Positions 1 to 35,688 of a stretch of DNA of 64,000 nucleotides are shown here, piece by piece (position 1 is the first letter of the stretch; each line of letters begins with the position of its first letter). The notes beneath the pieces are model-generated. The model had not been told where the DNA came from. It searched no databases and was given only the letters and a program-made list of their open reading frames with translations. This DNA comes from a virus: IMG/VR virus record IMGVR_UViG_3300042691_022450; one strand, given 5' to 3'. The translations under genes were made by a program, and so were the position numbers.

Positions 1-186
1 GTATCTGATGAGGAAGGAACAACTTATACTGATACGACTATGTGTGTTCCCGTGTGGTTATGCAACTGGAACCAAGGATACTTTGGTTTTGTGCCCGAAG
101 AAATTTACATTAAAGTTAGGCCAATTAACAAAGGACTTGAATCATTTGTGAAAGCAACTGGTATGAGGGGGTTTTTGAATAAATAA
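1..186 (+). CDS. 3' end of hypothetical protein (partial)
   Basis: Open frame 1 from the window edge: ...PVWLCNWNQGYFGFVPEEIYIKV...NK*. Confidence 0.7.
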   Translation, partial: VSDEEGTTYTDTTMCVPVWLCNWNQGYFGFVPEEIYIKVRPINKGLESFVKATGMRGFLNK

Positions 187-203
187 AAGAAAAAAGTAGT
201 CAG

Positions 204-362
204 ATGAAACCAACACCAAGAGAATTGCAGGAAACCTATAAGATTCATTCACAACTTATAGAGCATCTCATCTCGGAGGGTTATGCAGATGACAATGAAT
301 CTGCAAATAAAATCATTGAGGGTATGAGTGAGACTTGGTTCACTACAATTATTAAGGACTGA
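204..362 (+). CDS. Small protein consisting of the 'L..EGYA...A..I...MSE.W' motif
   Basis: Manual translation MKPTPRELQETYKIHSQLIEHLISEGYADDNESANKIIEGMSETWFTTIIKD; same motif as the C-terminus of 2727..3341. Confidence 0.75.
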   Translation: MKPTPRELQETYKIHSQLIEHLISEGYADDNESANKIIEGMSETWFTTIIKD

Positions 363-439
363 CACTTTCCGAACCGTCCACTCCCCTTGCCACGCAGCAG
401 CATCCGTGGTATGATTACTAGGTAATCAAGGGAAAACCG

Positions 440-658
440 ATGGAAGTTCTTGAGTTCACTGATTCTTCTGCTATCGCAAAGATTCAGTTTGATTATGCTG
501 AAAATCAGGTAGGTATTGCTTATACTTACAAACCAGAGCAAGTTTATGTCTTCAAGTGCAATGACTTGACTTTGGTGAAAGAACAGGTTAAAGTTGCTGA
601 TAGTGTTGGGAAACTTATTTCTCAATTTCGTAAAGATGGGACTTTGATTTCTGTTTGA
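440..658 (+). CDS. KTSC-like small protein
   Basis: SSAIAKIQFD...VYVF...SVGKLI pattern resembles the KTSC domain. Confidence 0.55.
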   Translation: MEVLEFTDSSAIAKIQFDYAENQVGIAYTYKPEQVYVFKCNDLTLVKEQVKVADSVGKLISQFRKDGTLISV

Positions 659-692
659 TTATCCTGCTATTCGTTATTTGCGAATAGCAAAT

Positions 693-765
693 GCTGGTTT
701 AGCAATCTGGCGAATGCAATCGACTCATAATCGATGGGAGGCGAGTTCGATCCTCGCAACCAGCA
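693..765 (+). tRNA. tRNA-Met/Ile2 (CAU)
   Basis: Cloverleaf; anticodon arm ATCGA-CTCATAA-TCGAT; TTCGA T-loop. Confidence 0.9.
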
Positions 766-766
766 C

Positions 767-795
767 TTGACAATCTAAGCACACTCTGCTATGAT
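767..795 (+). promoter_or_regulatory. Sigma70-type promoter
   Basis: TTGACA-17 bp-TATGAT just upstream of tRNA-Ile. Confidence 0.7.
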
Positions 796-805
796 TGTCT
801 TATAA

Positions 806-880
806 GGGACTGTTGCTTATTGGTTAAAGCCCACTGCTTATAACGGTGTGAACAGAGTTCAATTCTCTGCAGTCCTACCA
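806..880 (+). tRNA. tRNA-Ile (UAU)
   Basis: CACTG-CTTATAA-CGGTG anticodon arm; encoded CCA. Confidence 0.9.
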
Positions 881-881
881 A

Positions 882-1224
882 GCGAGTATGGTGGAATCGG
901 TAGACACACCAGACTTATGAAAATTGAGCCTCATTTGGGAAACCTTATGAGTGTAATTCCTCAAATTCGGTGAAACCTGTAAAATGGCAATACCGAGCGA
1001 AGTTGCAAGACAGTTGGAAAGACAACGGCTACCCAATGTGCTTCTAGAGAGGGTTGGAATTATCTAGAAAATGCAAAACGTGTAGAGACTAGACGGGGAA
1101 CACCTAAACTGAAAGGTATGGTGAAGGTATAGTCCAGACCACAAACCGAAAGGGTAGTGAAAACTATAGTGGTAAGAAAATCTGTTGGGCATTGCCCGTG
1201 GGAGTTCAAGTCTCCCTACTCGCA
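882..1224 (+). tRNA. trnL: tRNA-Leu (UAA), split by group I intron (exons 882-916 and 1177-1224)
   Basis: Joining ...CAGACTT to AAAATCTG... restores the CTTAAAA loop; long variable arm; acceptor GCGAGTA/TACTCGC. Confidence 0.9.
917..1176 (+). ncRNA. Group I self-splicing intron (cyanobacterial/plastid trnL type, IC3-like)
   Basis: Core motifs AATTGAGCC, AAATTCGGTGAAACC (P), GGCAATACCGAGC (Q), GTAGAGACTAGACGG (R), AAGGTATAGTCC (S); 5' exon ends in U and intron ends in G. Confidence 0.9.
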
Positions 1225-1268
1225 CTTGCCCGAAAGGGCAAACACACATTATTTCAGTTATTAGTATT

Positions 1269-1853
1269 ATGATTGAACAGTTTATTTCCGATTTGAAAAC
1301 TATTCCCTCTGAGGAATATAAAAAATTCTTCATTCAAGCAAATAAAGTTGCTGCGATGTATCCCCTAAATGAAGGGATTGATTGTTTTGCTAGGGGTGAA
1401 TCAATTGAATTTGGATTCATTGAAACCTTCTCAAAATATATTGATATTAAAGCATCAGAAAAGAAAGAAAAAAATGACCCAGATGGTCTTTATCGCACAA
1501 AACATCTTTGGGATGCAAAAACGAAAAAATTTGGTTTGGAACCCCAAGAAAAGAAATCTTGGTTGATCAAATCAAAAACTTGGGATTTCAAAAAAACTCA
1601 GTCGGGAGTTTCTGAGTTCAAAACTAGGTCCGAATGGTTTGTTTTGATTGATCCTTGGACTCACCGACTTGCCGTTCTTGACGCAAAACTTCTGTTTTCT
1701 AAAAACTTTACTGAAGGTAAATCGAGAATTACTTTCTCAGTTTCTCAGGAAGATATTACAATGATTTATGATGGCATAAATGATGTAGAAGAAGTTAATG
1801 TTGTACCTGAGAGCAAAACTCTGCTAAAATACATTTGGGAACAAGCACAATAG
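1269..1853 (+). CDS. Putative PD-(D/E)xK nuclease (candidate restriction endonuclease)
   Basis: PDGLYRTKHLWDAK motif; 5 bp upstream of the MTase; start moved to ATG 1269 because the longer ORF overlaps the tRNA. Confidence 0.5.
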   Translation: MIEQFISDLKTIPSEEYKKFFIQANKVAAMYPLNEGIDCFARGESIEFGFIETFSKYIDIKASEKKEKNDPDGLYRTKHLWDAKTKKFGLEPQEKKSWLIKSKTWDFKKTQSGVSEFKTRSEWFVLIDPWTHRLAVLDAKLLFSKNFTEGKSRITFSVSQEDITMIYDGINDVEEVNVVPESKTLLKYIWEQAQ

Positions 1854-1858
1854 ACTAA

Positions 1859-2698
1859 ATGAAACAATTTCCATTAAAGACAATGCTCCGTTATCCTGGA
1901 GGAAAGAGTAAAGCACTTAAAACTCTTGCTCCTTGGTTTCCTAGTGATTTCAAGGAGTTTAGGGAACCATTCTTGGGTGGTGGAAGCATTTCTTTAATGG
2001 TTTCACAGAACTATCCAAAAGTTCCTATTTGGGTAAATGATAAGTATTTTTATCTTTATAACTTTTGGATTCAACTCCGTGATAATGGACAAGTTCTTAA
2101 AGACAAATTAAGAGCAATCAAAGAAGAAGTGAATGGAGATGATGAAGCACATAAAGACTTGTTCAATCAGTATCAGAGTGACATTGAAACTCTTGAACCA
2201 TTAGAACAAGCAGTTGCTTTCTTTATTCTGAATAAGTGTTCTTATTCTGGTTTGACTGAGAATTCTACTTTCTCAGTTCAAGCATCACGTTCCAACTTCT
2301 CTTTGGTTGGAATTGATAAACTTCCAAAGTATTCTTATATTATCAAGAACTGGAAGATTACTAATATTGATTATGCCGAGGTAATGAATGACCGTGGTGA
2401 GGAAGTATTTGTATTTCTTGACCCACCTTATGATATCAAGGATTTCCTTTATGGAACTGGAAGGAAACTTCATTCATCATTCTCACACGAAAGATTTGCT
2501 GATGATGTAGATAAGTGCCCTCATCGTTTTATGATTACATATAATCTAAATGATTGGTTGCTGAATCGTTATAAAGAGTACAATTTGAATGAATGGAAAC
2601 TCCGATATTCAATGGTTCATCGTGGGGAAAAAGGAACTCAGGACAACGTTAAAACAGAATTGTTAGTTACAAACTATGTTCTGGATTCAGTTTTATAA
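1859..2698 (+). CDS. dam: Dam-family DNA adenine methyltransferase
   Basis: RYPGGKS, EPFLGGGS (motif I), FLDPPY (motif IV). Confidence 0.93.
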   Translation: MKQFPLKTMLRYPGGKSKALKTLAPWFPSDFKEFREPFLGGGSISLMVSQNYPKVPIWVNDKYFYLYNFWIQLRDNGQVLKDKLRAIKEEVNGDDEAHKDLFNQYQSDIETLEPLEQAVAFFILNKCSYSGLTENSTFSVQASRSNFSLVGIDKLPKYSYIIKNWKITNIDYAEVMNDRGEEVFVFLDPPYDIKDFLYGTGRKLHSSFSHERFADDVDKCPHRFMITYNLNDWLLNRYKEYNLNEWKLRYSMVHRGEKGTQDNVKTELLVTNYVLDSVL

Positions 2699-2726
2699 AT
2701 AAATTATATAAAACTATAAAAAACCA

Positions 2727-3341
2727 ATGAACTATAAGGACCTTCAGAACATTTCTTATCTTTCGCATCAAATTCTTACAGAAGCTTCTTCTGAGGAGCA
2801 CAATGTAATGAATCGTTGGCCTTATGCTTCTCCTTATCTTCAAGAGGAAAGAGCACCTGGTGTAAAACCTTACAAACCTGGTGTACCACCTATGTCTTAT
2901 TCTAAAGCAAAACCACCTTCAGGTGAAAAGGGAGATGGAAGTGGATATGGTGCTGACAAGAAATTTACTCAAGATACTGACGCAAAGTCATTTAGACCTG
3001 GTGTAGATGTTCCAAAAGTAAAGAAATTTGGTAGAATTTCAAGAATCATTCCTCACGGTATTGGTGATCACGCAAATAGAACTCAGTCAAGAGTTTCTAC
3101 AATCGTTGGAAAGGACCCTGGAGCACCAAAATCGGAAAAAATGCCACAGGAAAAGAAAAAGCCAAGTCGTGAAATTATCCGTAAAGGTAAGCAAGAAGAA
3201 AGTTTTGACCTTTATGACTTAGTTCTCGCACATCTCCTTGATGAAGGTTATGCTGATACTCAAGAACAAGCAGAAGCAATTATGGTGAATATGAGTGAAG
3301 GATGGGTTGATGCCATCGTTGATTCTTATATTCAAGGATGA
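2727..3341 (+). CDS. Hypothetical late protein with C-terminal EGYA...MSE.W motif
   Basis: Preceded by TATAAATA; K/P-rich middle; LLDEGYADTQEQAEAIMVNMSEGW. Confidence 0.75.
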   Translation: MNYKDLQNISYLSHQILTEASSEEHNVMNRWPYASPYLQEERAPGVKPYKPGVPPMSYSKAKPPSGEKGDGSGYGADKKFTQDTDAKSFRPGVDVPKVKKFGRISRIIPHGIGDHANRTQSRVSTIVGKDPGAPKSEKMPQEKKKPSREIIRKGKQEESFDLYDLVLAHLLDEGYADTQEQAEAIMVNMSEGWVDAIVDSYIQG

Positions 3342-3414
3342 TAATTTGACAATTTTAAACTAATAGTTTAAAATTACATATATAAATAATAATTATTTTA
3401 TTTTTATAACAATT

Positions 3415-3612
3415 ATGTCTGATACTGTAAATCAAATTGCTTCTGTTTTTGAAACTTGGAAACAAGAAGATGAGAAGTTTGAAACTGGAAATAGTTCTGC
3501 TGGAACTAGAGCAAGGAAAGCTCTGCAAGAAATTGCAAAACTTGCAAAGACTCGTAGAGCAGAAATCTCCGAAGTAAAGAATGCTAAAAAAGCAGAAAAA
3601 GTTGCTTCTTGA
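3415..3612 (+). CDS. Histone H1-like (Hc1 family) small basic protein
   Basis: EKFETGNSSAGTRARKALQEIAKLAK motif. Confidence 0.7.
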   Translation: MSDTVNQIASVFETWKQEDEKFETGNSSAGTRARKALQEIAKLAKTRRAEISEVKNAKKAEKVAS

Positions 3613-3641
3613 CCTTATAAATAAAACAACGACTTAAAACA

Positions 3642-3740
3642 ATGACTAACCTTCATACACAACCTAAGAGTGATTATCCGATGAACTGCTGGTTTATTGG
3701 AGAGACCCTCTTGGTTGCGAATATGGTAAGTCAAAGTTAA
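3642..3740 (+). CDS. Putative attenuator leader peptide (32 aa, 19 different amino acids)
   Basis: MTNLHTQPKSDYPMNCWFIGETLLVANMVSQS*; TATAAATA promoter at 3616; overlapping alternative helices. Confidence 0.65.
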   Translation: MTNLHTQPKSDYPMNCWFIGETLLVANMVSQS

Positions 3741-3763
3741 AAGAACAAACCATAAAAGCAATG

Positions 3764-3798
3764 AAGAGGGAGAATCCAAAAGATTCTCCCTCTTTTTT
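3764..3798 (+). terminator. Intrinsic terminator (3:4 helix of putative attenuator)
   Basis: AAGAGGGAGAATC-caaaa-GATTCTCCCTCTT followed by a T run. Confidence 0.85.
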
Positions 3799-4015
3799 AT
3801 GCCTTGTGCCAGTTGAGCAACTGGTCGTATGATTTGCCACCAGGGTCCAAACTCTGGTATATTACTTGAGTCGGTGGGGGAACGAGACCCCAAATGCCTG
3901 GGACCACTTCTGGAACTGGCACAACCCACTTGCCCCGCAACGGGTTCTGTGGTATTCTTAAAGGGTGGTTGAGAGACCACCAGCACCTTGACAACTGAAT
4001 AATTACCACATTATT

Positions 4016-4087
4016 GGGACATTAACTCAGCGGAAGAGTATCCGGCTTTTAACCGGTTAGTCCTCGGTTCGAATCCGAGATGTCCCA
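4016..4087 (+). tRNA. tRNA-Lys (UUU)
   Basis: CCGG-CTTTTAA-CCGG; cloverleaf. Confidence 0.92.
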
Positions 4088-4091
4088 TCGT

Positions 4092-4182
4092 GGGAGAGTG
4101 GCTACTGTTGGCAATATGTGTAGCGGAAGTCTGTAAAACTTTTACATCGGAACCATCGGGGGTTCAATTCCCTCCTCTCTCA
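4092..4182 (+). tRNA. tRNA-Tyr (GUA), enlarged D loop
   Basis: GAAGT-CTGTAAA-ACTTT; long variable region. Confidence 0.85.
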
Positions 4183-4186
4183 CCTT

Positions 4187-4258
4187 GGCCCTATAGTGAA
4201 GTGGTTATCACGCATCTCTGTCCAAGATGTATCACGAGTTCAAATCTCGTTAGGGTCG
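4187..4258 (+). tRNA. tRNA-Asp (GUC)
   Basis: CATCT-CTGTCCA-AGATG. Confidence 0.9.
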
Positions 4259-4261
4259 CCT

Positions 4262-4333
4262 GGTCTCGTCGTCTAATGGTTAGGACGTTGCTCTTTCACA
4301 GCAAAAACGAGGGTTCAAATCCCTTCGAGACTA
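4262..4333 (+). tRNA. tRNA-Glu (UUC)
   Basis: TTGCT-CTTTCAC-AGCAA. Confidence 0.92.
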
Positions 4334-4337
4334 CCTT

Positions 4338-4411
4338 GGGAACATAGCTCCAATTGGTAGAGCACAGGATTGAAGATCTTGGTGTTGTCGGTTCAAATCC
4401 GACTGTTCCCG
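4338..4411 (+). tRNA. tRNA-Phe (GAA)
   Basis: CAGGA-TTGAAGA-TCTTG. Confidence 0.92.
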
Positions 4412-4414
4412 CTT

Positions 4415-4569
4415 GCCCTTGCCGTTGGGACGGTGAAATAGGGTTCAATTTGACAAAGTAGTTTTAGATAGGTGTGCTGAACCCACACTGATAAGATTCC
4501 CCTCGTAAGGGTACTTCTTGTACGAAACCTCAAGTCTATTGAGAGTGGGATCATTCCCCACCAAGGGCA
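4415..4569 (+). ncRNA. Unknown ~155-nt RNA with tRNA-like acceptor stem and T arm
   Basis: GCCCTTG/CAAGGGC-A closing stem, GTGGG-ATCATTC-CCCAC T-like arm, several internal hairpins; occupies one slot of the tRNA array. Confidence 0.65.
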
Positions 4570-4574
4570 CATAA

Positions 4575-4646
4575 TGGAATATAACTCAGTGGTAGAGTGC
4601 TGTGCTGATAACGCAGAAGTCGTGAGTTCAAATCTCACTATTCCAA
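4575..4646 (+). tRNA. tRNA-Ile (GAU)
   Basis: CTGTG-CTGATAA-CGCAG. Confidence 0.92.
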
Positions 4647-4697
4647 TTGTTGCCTTCGGGCAACATAAAACCCTTATGGGTTGCTTCAAGACAACAT

Positions 4698-4785
4698 AGA
4701 AAGGTGACCGAGAGGCTTAAGGTAGAAGTTTGCTAAACTTCCGAGGGAGAATATCCCTCCGAGGGTTCGAATCCCTCCCTTTCTG
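4698..4785 (+). tRNA. tRNA-Ser (GCU)
   Basis: GAAGT-TTGCTAA-ACTTC; long variable arm. Confidence 0.92.
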
Positions 4786-4787
4786 CT

Positions 4788-4859
4788 GGCAGTATAGCTG
4801 AGTGGTAAAGCACATCATTCATACCGATGCGACCGTGGGTTCAATTCCCACTACTGCCT
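4788..4859 (+). tRNA. tRNA-Met/Ile2 (CAU)
   Basis: CATCA-TTCATAC-CGATG. Confidence 0.85.
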
Positions 4860-4860
4860 T

Positions 4861-4932
4861 GTGTCATTATCCTAGTGGTTAAGGAACCAGTTTGTGAAAC
4901 TGGGTAGATGAGTTCAAATCTCATATGGCACC
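4861..4932 (+). tRNA. tRNA-His (GUG)
   Basis: CCAGT-TTGTGAA-ACTGG; C discriminator. Confidence 0.9.
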
Positions 4933-4934
4933 CC

Positions 4935-5006
4935 GCCCTTATAGCTCAGTGGTAGAGCAACTCACTAGTAATGAGTAGGTCGTTGGTTCAAATCCGACTG
5001 AGGGCT
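4935..5006 (+). tRNA. tRNA-Thr (AGU)
   Basis: ACTCA-CTAGTAA-TGAGT; GCC acceptor start typical of Thr. Confidence 0.9.
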
Positions 5007-5039
5007 CTTAACTATCTGGAATTTCCAGATAGTTCAAAT

Positions 5040-5110
5040 GTGTCTGTCGCCAAGTGGTAAGGCAGGAGTCTGCAAAACTCTTATCGTCAGTTCGATTCTG
5101 ACCAGACACT
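5040..5110 (+). tRNA. tRNA-Cys (GCA)
   Basis: GGAGT-CTGCAAA-ACTCT; U discriminator. Confidence 0.92.
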
Positions 5111-5115
5111 CCTAC

Positions 5116-5187
5116 TCCAGAATCGACTAACAGGCAGGTCAACACACTTTGAATGTGTTTGTCTAGGTTCGAATCCTAGTTCTGGAA
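5116..5187 (+). tRNA. tRNA-Gln (UUG)
   Basis: ACACA-CTTTGAA-TGTGT. Confidence 0.9.
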
Positions 5188-5190
5188 CTT

Positions 5191-5263
5191 GTCCGTGTAG
5201 CCCAACGGAAGAGGCACTATCTTGAGGGGGTAGGTGTTGGAGGTTCAAATCCTCTCACGGACA
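5191..5263 (+). tRNA. tRNA-Leu (GAG), short variable arm
   Basis: CTATC-TTGAGGG-GGTAG; 5-nt variable loop. Confidence 0.85.
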
Positions 5264-5266
5264 TAT

Positions 5267-5344
5267 GCTGGTGTAGCCCAATCGGCAGGAGGCAGCAGAT
5301 TCAAAATCTGAACAGTGTGGGTTCAAATCCCTCCACCAGTACCA
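5267..5344 (+). tRNA. tRNA-Leu (CAA), short variable arm
   Basis: CAGA-TTCAAAA-TCTG; encoded CCA. Confidence 0.88.
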
Positions 5345-5345
5345 T

Positions 5346-5418
5346 ATCAGAGTAGCTCAATTGGTAGAGCAGTGGTCTCCAAAACTAAAGGTTGCGGGTT
5401 CAAGTCCTGTCTCTGATG
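5346..5418 (+). tRNA. tRNA-Trp (CCA)
   Basis: TGGT-CTCCAAA-ACTA; G discriminator. Confidence 0.9.
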
Positions 5419-5422
5419 CCTT

Positions 5423-5456
5423 GTCCTCTTAACTCAGTGGAATAGAGTAAAGGACG
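5423..5456 (+). pseudogene. Internally deleted tRNA remnant (probably Arg)
   Basis: GTCCTCT-TA-ACTC-AGTGGAATA-GAGT joined directly to AAAGGAC-G; anticodon and T arms absent. Confidence 0.6.
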
Positions 5457-5457
5457 C

Positions 5458-5486
5458 TTGACATTCAATTGAATGTCATATATACT
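5458..5486 (+). promoter_or_regulatory. Sigma70 promoter with 20-bp perfect palindrome over the -35
   Basis: TTGACA-17-TATACT; TGACATTCAA|TTGAATGTCA. Confidence 0.75.
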
Positions 5487-5572
5487 ATTGATAGAGGTTA
5501 AGTCCCTGTTATATCCTTATGAGATATATCACACTTAATCCATCAAACACACAAACACACAGGAGTAAAAGA

Positions 5573-5776
5573 ATGTCACCTTACGAACTACGATTTGAGA
5601 TTTTTAAGCAAGCATATGCATTTGCTAACGATAAGTTTAGCATTGAGTATGATACTGCCCGTTGTTGGAATGAAAATTCTATGAATACGGTTAAGATGGA
5701 TTATCCAGATTTTCCTACATATGAGTATATTGAGCAACTTGCAGAGAAAATCAATAACTTTGTAAGTTCTAAATGA
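5573..5776 (+). CDS. Conserved T4-like phage hypothetical protein
   Basis: AGGAG RBS; MSPYELRFEIFKQA...FPT...AEKINNFVS. Confidence 0.8.
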   Translation: MSPYELRFEIFKQAYAFANDKFSIEYDTARCWNENSMNTVKMDYPDFPTYEYIEQLAEKINNFVSSK

Positions 5777-5815
5777 TAAAATAGGGTGATAACACCCTTT
5801 AAAGATAGATTATAA

Positions 5816-5902
5816 GGAAGGTCAATCCGATTGGTGACGGAACCGCTCTTGAAAAGCGTTGAGGTGTTAAAGCCCTTGGGAGTTCGACTCTCCCACCTTC
5901 CG
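5816..5902 (+). tRNA. tRNA-Ser (UGA)
   Basis: CGCT-CTTGAAA-AGCG; long variable arm. Confidence 0.92.
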
Positions 5903-5923
5903 TTGCTTCTTATGAAGCATAAT

Positions 5924-5995
5924 GCCCTTGTAGCTCAGTGGTAGAGCAATGGTTTTGTAAACCATTGGTCGCAAGTTCAAATCTTGTCGGGGGCT
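5924..5995 (+). tRNA. tRNA-Thr (UGU)
   Basis: ATGGT-TTTGTAA-ACCAT. Confidence 0.92.
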
Positions 5996-6031
5996 TGACA
6001 GAATTTCGATTCTGTCTTACAATCAAATAAT

Positions 6032-6106
6032 GCGAAATTAATTCAGCGGTAGAATGTCTGCCTTCCAAGCAGAACGTCAGGAGTTCGAATCTCCTATTTC
6101 GCTCCA
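6032..6106 (+). tRNA. tRNA-Gly (UCC)
   Basis: TCTGC-CTTCCAA-GCAGA; CCA end. Confidence 0.93.
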
Positions 6107-6181
6107 GGGTGATTAACTCAGTGGTAGAGTTTCTCGTTTACACCGAGACAGTCGGGGGTTCGAATCCCTCATCACCCACCA
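6107..6181 (+). tRNA. tRNA-Val (UAC)
   Basis: TCTCG-TTTACAC-CGAGA; CCA end. Confidence 0.93.
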
Positions 6182-6255
6182 CGGGATGTAGCTCAACTTG
6201 GTAGAGTGCTTGATTTGGGTTCAAGATGTTGCAGGTTCAAATCCTGTCATCCCGA
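6182..6255 (+). tRNA. tRNA-Pro (UGG)
   Basis: CTTGA-TTTGGGT-TCAAG; C1-G72. Confidence 0.92.
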
Positions 6256-6295
6256 CTTGGAGAATCTAAATACCTCCAAACACTACAAAATCATT

Positions 6296-6451
6296 ATGTC
6301 ACTGATTTCACAAAAAGACAGAACGATTGCCATTGAGGCACTAGACTTTTATCTATTCAATAAGAAATTTGATCTTACTGAAGAAAAAAGAATGGAACTT
6401 AATGCACTTCTGAATTGGATTAAAATCGAATACAATAAACATGAAAATTAA
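6296..6451 (+). CDS. Small hypothetical protein
   Basis: MSLISQKDRTIAIEAL...; after TAAATA; overlaps next start. Confidence 0.7.
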   Translation: MSLISQKDRTIAIEALDFYLFNKKFDLTEEKRMELNALLNWIKIEYNKHEN

Positions 6452-6602
6452 TCTTTGGCACTGTAAAGAAATGAATCAATGGAGATGGACTTTATGTGAA
6501 GATTCTCGTCCAATTGTTAAACAAGAATCAGGTCAAAGAGAAAATTTACGAGATGCTATGAATGACGTAGTAAATACAGTTGAGTATTTAATGAATACTT
6601 GA
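6441..6602 (+). CDS. Small hypothetical protein
   Basis: MKINLWHCKEMNQWRWTL...ESGQ...LRDAMNDV (manual translation). Confidence 0.7.
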   Translation: MKINLWHCKEMNQWRWTLCEDSRPIVKQESGQRENLRDAMNDVVNTVEYLMNT

Positions 6603-6611
6603 CATTCTTAT

Positions 6612-6684
6612 TCCAGATGACCGAGCAAGCGAACGGGCCCGACTGTTAATCGGAGATTGGTAGGGGCAGTACCTACATCTGGAG
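6612..6684 (+). tRNA. tRNA-Asn (GUU), atypical T loop
   Basis: CCGA-CTGTTAA-TCGG; T loop GGCAGTA. Confidence 0.82.
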
Positions 6685-6732
6685 TTTCTAACCTCTAAAA
6701 TATTATAAATAATAATAAAGTTGGAGGTTAGA

Positions 6733-7278
6733 ATGTCTGGTAAATCAGTTGTTGAATTTCGTCAAAGAAGAAAAAGATGGGCAGTTGAAGCATTTGGTGG
6801 AAAATGTGGTATTTGTGGTTATGATAAGTGTGTTGAAGCATTAGATTTTCACCACATAGACCCAAATGAAAAAGATTTTTCTATAACTGCATCTGTAGCA
6901 AACAGACAAGTATTTGTTGAAGAACTTAAAAAGTGTGTTTGTTTATGTTCTAACTGCCATCGTGAAGTTCATTCTGGAATTACAAAAATCCCAGATAATG
7001 TTCTAAAATTTGATGAAAGTTTTTCCAATAAACCTGTTCCAGAAAAACCAAAGCACCCTTGTAAAGAGTGTGGGAAACTAACAATCATTACTCAAACTTT
7101 TTGTTCAGTAAAATGTTCTCATAAAAGCAGAGAAGTTGTTGATTGGCCAACTAATCAAGAATTACAAAAATTAGTTCTTGAGAATGGTTATCGTTCTACT
7201 GGAAGAATGTTTGGAGTTAGTGATAATGCTGTTAGAAAAAGGTTAAATAAATTATCCAAATATCGTGGGGAAGTGTAA
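6733..7278 (+). CDS. HNH homing endonuclease inserted in tRNA array
   Basis: GGKCGICGY...LDFHHIDP...LCSNCHREVH; extra CxxC/FCS motifs and C-terminal HTH-like GVSDNAVRK. Confidence 0.9.
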   Translation: MSGKSVVEFRQRRKRWAVEAFGGKCGICGYDKCVEALDFHHIDPNEKDFSITASVANRQVFVEELKKCVCLCSNCHREVHSGITKIPDNVLKFDESFSNKPVPEKPKHPCKECGKLTIITQTFCSVKCSHKSREVVDWPTNQELQKLVLENGYRSTGRMFGVSDNAVRKRLNKLSKYRGEV

Positions 7279-7338
7279 AGGTTGCACAGAAGTCTCATAA
7301 GCTTCAGGTTGGTGGTTCGATTCCACCCCCCGCCACCA
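7264..7338 (+). tRNA. tRNA-Met (CAU), initiator-like
   Basis: C1.C72 mismatch; GAAGT-CTCATAA-GCTTC; CCA; overlaps HNH stop. Confidence 0.82.
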
Positions 7339-7341
7339 AAT

Positions 7342-7415
7342 GCCCATATACTCCAACTGGCAGAGAGGGTGGACTTAGAATCCATACAGTGTAGGTTCGA
7401 CTCCTATTATGGGCA
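7342..7415 (+). tRNA. tRNA-Leu (UAG), short variable arm
   Basis: GTGGA-CTTAGAA-TCCAT. Confidence 0.88.
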
Positions 7416-7419
7416 CCTA

Positions 7420-7492
7420 GGGGTCTTAGCTCAATTGGTAGAGCATTTGCTTTGCAAGCAAGAGGTTAGGGGTTCGAGTCCCCTAGATTCCA
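7420..7492 (+). tRNA. tRNA-Ala (UGC)
   Basis: G3.U70; TTGC-TTTGCAA-GCAA. Confidence 0.93.
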
Positions 7493-7712
7493 TTGTCCAA
7501 GAGGATAAGAAGTCTGATGTTTCGGACGGGGTTTCGATTACCCCCATCTCCATTACTTGGGGGTGCCAGGTTTCGACGGGGCATAAAGGTCTTATCTGTT
7601 GACGGGACAAGAAAACAAACGCAAACAAAATTGTTGCTTTCTCTCGTCAAACCGCATTGGTTTGAACTAAACGAGTGAGGGGGTTATAAGTTTCCTTCTT
7701 ACCCAAAACTTA
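7493..7712 (+). ncRNA. ssrA: Circularly permuted (two-piece) tmRNA; tag ANKIVAFSRQTALV
   Basis: T arm and 3' acceptor strand (GGGGTTTCGATTACCCCCATCTCCA, 7528-7552) precede the 5' strand GGGGGTG..GGTTTCGAC (7559); G3.U70; tag frame 7621-7665. Confidence 0.9.
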
Positions 7713-7714
7713 CA

Positions 7715-7739
7715 AGGAGGTGTAATGCCTCCTATTTTT
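7715..7739 (+). terminator. Intrinsic terminator ending tRNA/tmRNA operon
   Basis: AGGAGG..CCTCCT hairpin plus T run. Confidence 0.75.
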
Positions 7740-7775
7740 GTGCCTTGTGCCAATATAAGGACTGGCACAAGGCAC

Positions 7776-7804
7776 TTGACATTCCGTCAAAACTTTGTTA
7801 TGAT
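7776..7804 (+). promoter_or_regulatory. Sigma70 promoter for Ro60-like gene
   Basis: TTGACA-17-TATGAT, preceded by a GTGCCA-N10-TGGCAC palindrome. Confidence 0.75.
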
Positions 7805-7821
7805 GAATAAGTACTCGATAA

Positions 7822-7880
7822 AAGATCAGGCAGCAATACAATACATTTTCCTTTCAAGAAAACCCATAAAAACTGATCTT
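7822..7880 (+). ncRNA. CAGCAA stem module A (Y-RNA-like candidate)
   Basis: AAGATCAG/CTGATCTT stem, CAGCAA, internal TTTTC-CTTTCAA-GAAAA hairpin. Confidence 0.65.
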
Positions 7881-7886
7881 GTATTA

Positions 7887-7940
7887 AAGTTAATTCAGCA
7901 ACACAACTTTGAATCTGTAAACTCAAAACAACATTAACTT
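7887..7940 (+). ncRNA. CAGCAA stem module B, abutting the RBS
   Basis: AAGTTAAT/ATTAACTT stem, CAGCAA, internal hairpin containing CTGTAAA. Confidence 0.6.
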
Positions 7941-7952
7941 GGAGAAAAAATT

Positions 7953-9419
7953 ATGACTTTCCTGACCGCACTTGAAACTGAACTGAACACCACTGAAACT
8001 CTCAATGGTGCCAAAGCATATAAATCTACTCTCAACAAATGTGTAGACCTGTTCGGTAAAATCTCTGCCTGTCGTAATGACATTCCACAGGCACGGAAAC
8101 TATTTGCTCACGCATATATGGAAGACCCTGAGACTGCGACTCGTATTCTCTTCAATGCCCGTGATATTCGTGGTGGGCAAGGAGAACGTGAAGTCTTCCG
8201 TAATCTATTCAAAGACCTTGTGAATGGGAATAGTGAAATTGCAACTAAACTTATTGAACTCATTCCTGTCTATGGTCGTTGGGATGACCTTCTAATTCTT
8301 GAAGGCACTGCTATCTGGGATAATGTTGTGGATGTTATCATCACGCAACTTGGTAAAGATGATGTTGCTCTGACCGCAGGGGAGAATGTTTCTCTGCTTG
8401 GTAAGTGGATGCCTTCTATCAATGCTTCTAGTGCTGATAGCAAACGTCTTGGTCGTGTGTTCGCAAAACGTCTTGAACTGAACGAACGTCAGTATCGTAA
8501 GTTCCTGACTGCTCTTCGTTTTCAAATTAAAATTGTGGAACAGAAGATGTGTTCCAAAGAATGGTCTGAGATTGACTACGAACATCTTCCTTCTCGTGCT
8601 GGATTTATGTATCGTAAGGCATTCGCAAAGCAGGATGCTACTCGTTACGCAGAATATTTGAGTGCCGTGGAGAAAGGTGATAAGAAAATCAATGCTGGAA
8701 CCATCTATCCTTATGAGATTGTAGATAAGTATCTCTACAAAGGTGGCAGTCAAGATAAGACTATTGACCTGATGTGGGAGGCACTGCCTAACTATATGGA
8801 AGGTCAAGAACTCAATGGTCTTGTGGTTGCCGATGTTTCTGGTAGTATGATGGGAACTCCAATGGCAGTTTCTATCTCTCTTGCGATGTATATTGCCGAA
8901 CGCAATACTGGTATTTGGAAAGATAAGTTCATCACTTTCTCTGAATCTCCTGAACTTCAATCCATCGTCGGTAATACTATCGGTGACCGTATTCGCAATC
9001 TTGCCAGTTCTTCTTGGGGATTCAATACTGACCTCAAAGCAGTATTTGAAAGTGTTCTGAATGCAGGAATCAAGAATAATGTTCCTGACGCAGAAATGCC
9101 TAAGAAACTTATCATTGTTTCTGATATGCAGTTTGACCAAGCGTGTAGTTCTAACAAACGCACCAACTTTGAGCAAATTCAGAAGATGTATCATAAGGCA
9201 GGATATGAGATGCCTGAACTTGTTTTCTGGAATGTGAATGCGATTGGGGGCAATGTTCCTATAACTATCCACGATACTGGAACTTGTCTGGTTTCAGGAT
9301 GTTCTCCTTCCATTCTGAAAAGTGTTCTGGGTGGTAAAACTATCACTCCTGTTGACGTGATGAAGGATGCGGTGTATGATGAACGTTATGCTCCTATCGG
9401 TGAGGCATTCAGTTCCTGA
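7953..9419 (+). CDS. DUF2828-type Ro60/TROVE-like protein with C-terminal vWA domain
   Basis: RDIRGGQGER, GRWDDL, GKWMPS motifs; vWA MIDAS DVSGSM, NTD, SDMQFD, FWN. Confidence 0.85.
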   Translation: MTFLTALETELNTTETLNGAKAYKSTLNKCVDLFGKISACRNDIPQARKLFAHAYMEDPETATRILFNARDIRGGQGEREVFRNLFKDLVNGNSEIATKLIELIPVYGRWDDLLILEGTAIWDNVVDVIITQLGKDDVALTAGENVSLLGKWMPSINASSADSKRLGRVFAKRLELNERQYRKFLTALRFQIKIVEQKMCSKEWSEIDYEHLPSRAGFMYRKAFAKQDATRYAEYLSAVEKGDKKINAGTIYPYEIVDKYLYKGGSQDKTIDLMWEALPNYMEGQELNGLVVADVSGSMMGTPMAVSISLAMYIAERNTGIWKDKFITFSESPELQSIVGNTIGDRIRNLASSSWGFNTDLKAVFESVLNAGIKNNVPDAEMPKKLIIVSDMQFDQACSSNKRTNFEQIQKMYHKAGYEMPELVFWNVNAIGGNVPITIHDTGTCLVSGCSPSILKSVLGGKTITPVDVMKDAVYDERYAPIGEAFSS

Positions 9420-35516: not shown

Positions 35517-35600
35517 TTCTTACGGGCATCAAAGGTCCAAACTTTGAATAAGACCCACACCTCCTATGCCTCTTCACAATGCACAAACCTGGAGGTTTAT

Positions 35601-35674
35601 GGGTTAGTAGCTCAGATGGATAGAGCAATTCACTTCTAATGAATTGGTCGGGGGTTCGAGTCCCTCCTAACCCG
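35601..35674 (+). tRNA. tRNA-Arg (UCU)
   Basis: ATTCA-CTTCTAA-TGAAT; GGATA D loop. Confidence 0.93.
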
Positions 35675-35688
35675 TTATTTTTATTATT

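Follow-up and report, generated by a model that had tools for sequence, protein, structure and literature searches.

The window, the whole stretch of 64,000 nucleotides analysed here (IMG/VR record IMGVR_UViG_3300042691_022450), belongs to a T4-like cyanomyovirus (Kyanoviridae). Between positions 3616 and 3798 its plus strand carries a compact cassette made of a promoter box, a short ORF and an intrinsic terminator, followed by a spacer and an array of tRNA genes. The cassette opens with a T4-type late promoter box, TATAAATA (3616–3623), from which transcription would start near 3630. This box occurs eight times in the window, always on the plus strand, and in the part of the window for which ORFs were listed the copies at 2694, 3381, 3616 and 6704 lie, as judged by eye, shortly 5' of an ORF start. 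The published late promoter of cyanophage S-PM2 is NATAAATA (PMC2984593). The leader ORF (3642–3740) starts with ATG and has 32 codons and a TAA stop codon (3738–3740). In the window its 5' UTR consists of 12 A-rich nucleotides without a Shine-Dalgarno sequence, and the corresponding ORF of the cultured phage S-CREM1 carries a GAGG Shine-Dalgarno (ribosome-binding) site. A sequence-only reading of this locus had described a late promoter ahead of a 32-codon ORF with 17 kinds of residue in the first 21 codons and 19 in all, Arg being the absent one, and our analysis confirmed each of these points.

The terminator (3763–3798) is composed of a 14-bp stem (3763–3776/3782–3795), a 5-nt loop and a T run that extends to 3798, and the stop codon of the ORF is located 23 nt 5' of its stem. 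It is followed by a spacer (3799–4014) with promoter-like cassettes, for example at 3834–3863 and 3930–3958, each of which consists of an inverted repeat, then an extended -10-like box and then a hairpin. The candidate regulated genes, tRNA-Lys(UUU) and after it the rest of the tRNA array, occupy positions 4015–7492, and a permuted tmRNA comes after the array (7480–7731), all of them on the plus strand. The nearest related contig is 97–98% identical to the window over 3400–3894, and the closest relative lacks positions 3895–3986, a 92-nt indel within the spacer. A scan of positions 1–9000 against Rfam (cmscan, E <= 1) returned no T-box, leader family or other match over 3616–3800.

The RNA of the cassette is predicted to adopt mutually exclusive helices. 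In the minimum-free-energy fold, the outer helix P0 pairs a 5' arm that holds the start codon (3633–3651) with positions 3725–3743. Region 1 (3658–3670, codons 6 to 10) is the 5' arm of helix 1:2, the anti-antiterminator, and pairs with 3708–3719, and between regions 1 and 2 there is an apical hairpin of 11 bp with a 3-nt loop (3677–3701), which contains the Cys and Trp codons. Region 2 (3706–3727) may be the partner of region 1 or, through 3706–3712 and 3714–3718, of region 3, and it includes the 5' arm of a stop-codon hairpin (3722–3727). Region 3 (3749–3770) comprises the 3' arm of that hairpin (3749–3754) and the antiterminator segments 3758–3762 and 3764–3770, and overlaps the 5' arm of the terminator.

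The leader as a whole (3625–3750) folds as one long hairpin of -35.6 kcal/mol (z = -5.4), a stability matched by none of 200 shuffles. Without the 3' arm of the terminator, the partner of region 2 becomes region 3 (3706–3718/3758–3770 and 3722–3727/3749–3754), and in the window this 2:3 fold encloses the stop codon. The three helices are nearly equal in energy, with -24.5 kcal/mol for 1:2 together with the apical hairpin, -26.1 kcal/mol for 2:3 and -22.0 kcal/mol for 3:4. All three had been listed in the sequence-only reading, including the extension of 2:3, and all three are present. Even when region 1 is masked, the terminator fold keeps an advantage of about 2 kcal/mol over the forced antiterminator fold, and a switch between the two would therefore need to be kinetic, like that of classical attenuators.

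Distribution of the cassette among cyanophages

Relatives were gathered in two ways, using the 65-residue histone-H1-like gene (3415–3612) as an anchor and using DNA patterns derived from the terminator and the conserved core. The cassette was found at 158 loci on viral contigs, which represent 86 distinct versions and 70 distinct peptides, and it is also carried by a further marine group and by the cultured phages S-PM2 and S-CREM1, giving about 90 distinct versions in total. The carriers are diverged freshwater, estuarine and marine cyanophages. The order of the parts is constant in every member: late-promoter box, ORF of 31 to 37 codons, stop-codon hairpin, terminator, spacer and, at nearly all loci, tRNA-Lys(UUU) leading an array that comprises up to 28 tRNAs and shares the orientation of the cassette. 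A terminator is located at this position in every relative, and its sequence differs by clade. At 152 of the 158 loci the terminator is followed within 600 nt by a tRNA of the same orientation, which is tRNA-Lys in nearly all cases, and among the loci listed this distance is mostly 112–224 nt. The first seven bases of the late-promoter box are identical in 85 of 85 aligned relatives. In addition, a TTGACT -35 box lies about 17 nt 5' of the late box in 46 of 72 relatives; the window has no TTGACT there.

Upstream of the cassette, most relatives have a tRNA-Arg(UCU), tRNA-Ala or tRNA-Gly that ends about 24 nt 5' of the promoter box, and the cassette therefore lies inside the array in these genomes, with the H1-like gene taking the place of the tRNA in the clade of the window. 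The leader ORF of S-CREM1 is annotated as a 32-residue hypothetical protein, and that of S-PM2 is unannotated, its site being covered by an opposite-strand CDS (S-PM2d160) that also overlaps tRNA-Arg. In S-SRM01, the nearest named relative according to the H1-like gene, there are few tRNAs at this place and the cassette is absent, and in S-H9-2 a short tRNA set comes right after a CDS and the cassette was not seen.

Conservation of the leader frame and of the alternative helices

The leader ORF stays open in the approximately 90 distinct versions, and its internal indels are of 3, 9 or 18 nt only, all multiples of three. The lengths of the other cassette parts vary in all classes modulo 3, and stop codons are present in the other frames of the leader region. 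In clade B the third codon positions are 2–3 times more variable than the first and second ones, with an entropy over codons 14–33 of 0.32 at the third position versus 0.15 and 0.11 at the first and second. Between clades the peptides are 16–34% identical; the initiator Met is the one invariant residue, and one Trp is found in at least 90% of the members. Pfam had no match for any of 27 member peptides, the ESM Atlas contained no look-alike of the peptide, and PHROGs returned nothing usable, the one entry being a PHROG of unknown function at E = 0.05. This pattern of conservation appears to fit a translated leader peptide better than a folded protein, and the codon periodicity in clade B also fits a peptide with a function of its own.

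For the antiterminator, in the alignment of 85 sequences, 93.6% of the cells of 2:3 are paired, compared with 40–66% in controls slid by 1–3 columns, and 8 of its 17 pairs are changed on both sides, a number that 0 of 500 shuffles reached. In the stop-codon hairpin, A-U pairs are replaced by U-A and G-C pairs by A-U among relatives, and in S-CREM1 its sequence is wholly different, yet self-complementary. Because linker lengths differ between clades, the complementarity was also evaluated by duplex tests on each sequence. These tests gave a result for 14 clade representatives and none for two others; in each of the 14, a segment in the latter half of the ORF is complementary to the terminator 5' arm of its own clade, with -17 to -26 kcal/mol and P <= 0.025 versus shuffles. 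When ORFs and arms were combined in a 9 x 9 matrix, the cognate combinations averaged -26.3 kcal/mol and the non-cognate ones -18.1 kcal/mol, and the same matrix without the stop hairpin gave -16.9 and -13.3 kcal/mol, respectively (permutation P < 5e-5 in both cases). Since a terminated RNA never forms 2:3, the co-evolution of this helix makes sense only if it is of consequence, while transcription is under way, which of 2:3 and 3:4 is formed.

For the outer helix P0, 75% of the cells are paired over the 85 sequences and five pairs are changed on both sides. Helix 1:2 was recovered in clades A, B, F and G. It is seen in the window, in clade B as folded by RNAalifold, in the S-PM2 group and in S-CREM1, and clade B and S-PM2 differ in it by at least one compensatory exchange; clades C and D gave no sign of it. 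For clade B an apical hairpin is predicted at the corresponding place, and helix 1:2 shares only about two bases with 2:3. The duplex test for helix 1:2 is noisy, being significant in clades B, F and G and giving P = 0.23 in the window despite the z of -5.4 for the full fold. Conservation in related phages had been put forward as a check on the arrangement seen in the window, and the comparison bears it out, as the ORF, the terminator and competing helices with compensatory changes are kept ahead of tRNA-Lys and its array.

The proposed attenuation model and its alternatives

From the sequences and their comparison, we consider it likely that the cassette is a ribosome-dependent transcription attenuator of the trp (leader-peptide) type, which would gate the passage into the main tRNA array of transcription begun upstream, at a late or hybrid early/late promoter. 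The locus has a translated-type ORF, a terminator 3:4, an antiterminator 2:3 and, in most clades, a predicted helix 1:2; of the usual parts, it is the codon run that it lacks. An ORF and a terminator that would be switchable lie before the main tRNA cluster in more than 150 relatives, which suggests that the phage probably tunes part of its tRNA transcription, adjusting it to the smoothness with which ribosomes decode.

According to the attenuation model, transcription would start a few bases past the late-promoter box and a ribosome would load on the short A-rich leader. With the ORF untranslated, or smoothly translated to its stop, region 2 would be held by region 1 or blocked by the terminating ribosome; being unavailable, it would leave region 3 to pair with region 4, and RNA polymerase would stop at 3796–3798. 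The released RNA of about 170 nt would then fold with its start codon buried in helix P0. A ribosome stalled at about codons 3–18 would block helix 1:2, region 2 would pair with region 3, the terminator would be pre-empted and transcription would run on through the spacer into tRNA-Lys and the array. The codon range comes from a ribosome taken to cover about -15/+12 nt relative to its A site, set against region 1 (3658–3670) and region 2 (from 3706). We infer that stalling controls termination, which stalls count and how far tRNA expression depends on read-through and not on the spacer promoters.

The influence of the attenuator would probably be limited to the transcription that the upstream promoter or promoters contribute. 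In 81 of 84 distinct spacers an extended -10-like box is found 40–69 nt 5' of tRNA-Lys, and the long spacers, the window's included, hold two promoter-like cassettes. The earlier caveat that promoters lie between the terminator and the array is therefore well founded, and the conservation of the boxes themselves indicates that the array can probably be transcribed independently of the attenuator.

As for the signal, classical attenuators gain their sensitivity from runs of regulatory codons (PMC1183508). The leader has no such runs, nor does it repeat codons for amino acids tied to the regulated genes. This speaks against the attenuation model, as do the failure to find helix 1:2 in clades C and D, its small overlap with 2:3 in clade B, the stability of the terminator fold with region 1 masked, the promoter-like boxes of the spacer and the codon periodicity in clade B. 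The signal would most simply be a general slowness of decoding, not the shortage of one amino acid.

Among the other explanations, it is unlikely, though quite conceivable, that the cassette is a stand-alone micro-gene or a dual-function small RNA, an independent unit of about 170 nt with an ORF of 32–37 codons, whose peptide or RNA product would act in trans, and with a terminator that insulates an array driven by the spacer promoters. This would agree with the unit having its own promoter and a strong terminator, and with the conserved promoter-like boxes downstream. The codon periodicity and the nearly constant Trp suggest that it matters which residues are present, the mature fold hides the start codon in the manner of small mRNAs under translational control, and RNAs derived from attenuators can act in trans, as reported for rnTrpL (PMC6614838). 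However, the clade-specific co-evolution of 2:3 would have no role here unless termination were decided co-transcriptionally, and the peptide is divergent between clades (16–34% identity) and shows no family or language-model signal.

Returning to the attenuation model, a narrower form of it can be put forward tentatively, namely a broad-spectrum sensor of decoding in which a stall on the codons of any of about 13–14 amino acids within codons 3–18 would open the terminator. Such stalls could follow the decay of host tRNAs during infection or the cleavage of tRNAs by a host anticodon nuclease, and read-through would boost the near-complete tRNA set of the phage, with tRNA-Lys first and the tmRNA last. 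If true, this would be a virus-encoded homeostat for translation capacity and possibly a counter-defence. The sensing of decoding speed in general would be the more economical explanation, and it has a precedent in the bmrB leader (PMC4191407).

The amino acid composition of the leader bears on a stronger claim, that of a pan-amino-acid sensor, in which the leader was selected to hold nearly every amino acid once and most tRNA depletions or cleavages would open the terminator. We regard this claim as doubtful. The chance of finding 19 kinds of residue in 32 is about 0.004–0.007 given the protein composition of the window and 0.03 in nucleotide shuffles of the ORF; the window contains 81 ORFs of such size, and the count alone is not significant after selection among them. 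Among the relatives, frame 0 averages 18.6 kinds of residue versus 14.2–16.5 in the other frames, and several leaders have all 20 residues in 32–37 codons; three of these leaders gave P values of 0.001–0.0045 when tested by shuffling, and for a fourth no shuffle reached 20. Within the stall zone (codons 3–18), 11–14 kinds were counted per 16 residues in 29 of 29 members examined, above the null of 10.3 +/- 1.4, although the members are related and these counts are not independent. The diversity reaches 18–20 kinds in the freshwater clades A to C and is ordinary elsewhere, with 15 kinds in S-PM2, 17 in S-CREM1, 17 in clade D and 16 in clade E. Moreover, by ribosome geometry, a ribosome stalled past about codon 18, or on a codon for Ile, Gly, Glu, Val or Ala, would sit over region 2 and so promote termination, and single codons confer weak sensitivity to mild starvation (PMC1183508).

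The absent amino acids do not match the absent tRNAs either. The sequence-only reading had noted that Arg, which is missing from the peptide, is also the sole amino acid without an intact tRNA in 4016–7492. ARAGORN and Rfam find neither an Arg nor an Asn tRNA there, and the window leader has three Asn codons though the array is without tRNA-Asn. A Tyr-like tRNA gene (4092–4184) was called at a relaxed threshold only, and the window has a tRNA-Arg(UCU) outside the array, at 35600–35675. In the nearest relatives Arg replaces Cys in the leader though their arrays encode tRNA-Cys, most clade-B leaders are without Val though their arrays encode tRNA-Val, and S-PM2 and S-CREM1 have no tRNA-Cys, yet Cys is present in their leaders. 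Over 37 loci with at least 20 tRNAs each, amino acids appear in the peptide at a frequency of 0.94 when the array has a tRNA for them and 0.90 when it does not (P = 0.26), and the proposed match must be rejected. Of the idea that a stall at nearly any codon turns on the tRNA set, the attenuator architecture is upheld, while the diversity proves ordinary in several clades, only codons 3–18 or so are placed for switching and the link to the missing tRNA fails.

An attenuator governed by an arrest peptide of the TnaC/SecM type, in which the conserved Trp and its neighbours in the nascent peptide would stall the ribosome, possibly in answer to a small molecule, and termination would depend on where it stalls, is improbable. 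The Trp is present in at least 90% of aligned members, and in clades B and F the block of residues around it is invariant with synonymous variation. However, the block lies where the apical hairpin and region 2 are, and RNA pairing can therefore explain it; clades A, C, D and E are without it.

Finally, it is hardly credible that the site codes for a protein on the other strand, the annotation given for S-PM2 (S-PM2d160), with incidental cassette features: a stop-free antisense frame does span the element in 66 of 86 versions, with an ORF of 123 codons (3615–3986) in the window, but the annotated ORF of S-PM2 overlaps tRNA-Arg on the other strand, the promoter, the terminator and the codon periodicity all indicate the plus strand, and we rejected this candidate because element lengths in all three classes modulo 3 and the 92-nt indel in the spacer leave no conserved antisense frame.

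Comparison with known systems

Phage tRNA arrays are usually seen as codon-usage patches or as replacements for degraded or cleaved host tRNAs. We know of no leader-peptide attenuation described in cyanobacteria. Full-text searches of the literature revealed no attenuator described before phage or cyanophage tRNA genes, and the S-CREM1 paper, which treats the 24 tRNAs and the Rfam RNAs of that phage, does not mention the cassette. If the attenuation model is correct, the regulatory logic of a conserved attenuator that leads the array would have no earlier example known to us in the literature searched: a leader-peptide switch, otherwise placed ahead of amino-acid or synthetase genes, would here precede tRNA genes, in a phage of cyanobacteria. 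Since S-PM2 and S-CREM1 grow on laboratory Synechococcus strains, the idea is directly testable. The analysis would also correct the annotation of S-PM2, in which the leader ORF is unannotated beneath a spurious opposite-strand CDS.

The cassette resembles the trpL, hisL, pheL, thrL and ilvGMEDA leaders in having a short translated-type leader ORF, predicted exclusive 1:2, 2:3 and 3:4 helices and a terminator before the genes that would be regulated. The ilvGMEDA leader, likewise of 32 codons, is multivalent and responds to several amino acids. Unlike the attenuators of amino-acid operons, the cassette has no runs of regulatory codons, is followed by tRNAs instead of biosynthetic enzymes and is found in phages of cyanobacteria; it adds an outer helix that buries the start codon, and the antiterminator is extended by a conserved hairpin whose loop holds the stop codon. 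T-box riboswitches also link the status of tRNAs to transcription through a terminator and an antiterminator; however, they contain no translated frame, uncharged tRNA binds to them directly, and the genes under their control are those of synthetases or amino acids, whereas the cassette has a conserved translated-type frame and no T-box match.

The promoter region can be compared with the overlapping early/late promoters of T4-like phages without MotA, such as RB49 and S-PM2 (PMC2984593). The TTGACT of most relatives, at 17 nt from the late box, is similar to these proposed middle-mode promoters, whereas the copy in the window has the late box only, and the type of promoter says nothing about the attenuator. 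When terminated, the leader of the cassette would be released as a stable, highly structured RNA of about 170 nt, as is the case for rnTrpL (PMC6614838). Stress attenuators of the bmrB type act on genes for drug efflux or ribosome protection, and it is antibiotics that they respond to, whereas the output of the cassette would be tRNAs, and there is no sequence relationship between them. Nevertheless, the bmrB leader of the Bacillus subtilis bmrCD operon (PMC4191407), in which a leader ORF and a terminator/antiterminator pair likewise sense stalling as such, is the closest match to the mode of action proposed here.

The hybrid promoter and the spacer before tRNA-Lys

The hybrid promoter, in which a TTGACT -35 box lies upstream of the T4-type late box in most relatives of the putative attenuator cassette, carries a palindrome of A/T runs as its -35 to -10 spacer. 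This palindrome lies within the interval of about 24 nt that separates tRNA-Arg from the late box in L184, L186 and most loci of clade B, one of the clades of cassette relatives, and at positions 2481-2510 in L209, the cultured phage S-PM2. A comparison of clade B with S-PM2 shows covariation at the palindrome ends, and the element may be an operator or the trailer hairpin of tRNA-Arg. In S-PM2, a hypothetical CDS annotated on the opposite strand, S-PM2d160 (LN828717; L209 2354-2710), overlaps tRNA-Arg and the entire cassette, and is almost certainly spurious. The tRNA-Arg(UCU) gene is located immediately upstream of the cassette in most relatives, unlike in the window, where a solitary copy is found at 35600-35675, about 28 kb away from the tRNA array.

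Analysis of the spacer between the cassette terminator and tRNA-Lys (window 3799-4014; related loci L010-L208) revealed one or two repeated spacer cassettes, each composed, in this order, of an inverted repeat, an extended -10-like box and a GC-rich hairpin. The inverted repeat shows C-G to U-A exchanges between relatives. A segment of approximately one spacer cassette (window 3895-3986) is absent from the closest relative.

Features within the tRNA array

A Tyr-like tRNA gene at window 4092-4184 displays a GUA anticodon loop, as read by eye from the sequence; its variable arm is long and its D-loop oversized. This gene was missed by ARAGORN with default settings, was called as tRNA-Phe(gaa) in a relaxed run, and scored only 29 bits with Rfam; a normal tRNA-Tyr occupies the matching position in relatives. 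Further into the array, 160 nt without a tRNA call (window 4413-4574) contain a T-loop-like motif and represent a degenerate tRNA or, alternatively, some other small RNA. The array also harbors an HNH-type ORF (window 6704-7278), which contains paired Cys motifs and has its own TATAAATA box upstream. A similar insertion was detected in one relative, L124, located between the cassette and tRNA-Lys.

Elements outside the array and the cassette

The last tRNA of the array directly precedes a phage-encoded permuted tmRNA of the two-piece, cyanobacterial type (window 7480-7731; Rfam cyano_tmRNA, 115 bits), whose tag, as read by ARAGORN, ends in LV and not in AA.

Upstream of the cassette, a group I intron match was identified at window 907-1158 (Rfam RF00028, 58.8 bits); tRNA-Ile(UAU), at 806-880, lies just 5' of it. 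The match is followed by a 222-codon ORF (window 1185-1853) that could encode the homing endonuclease of the intron, and by a 279-codon ORF (window 1859-2698) containing a DPPY motif, which is typical of N6-adenine DNA methyltransferases.
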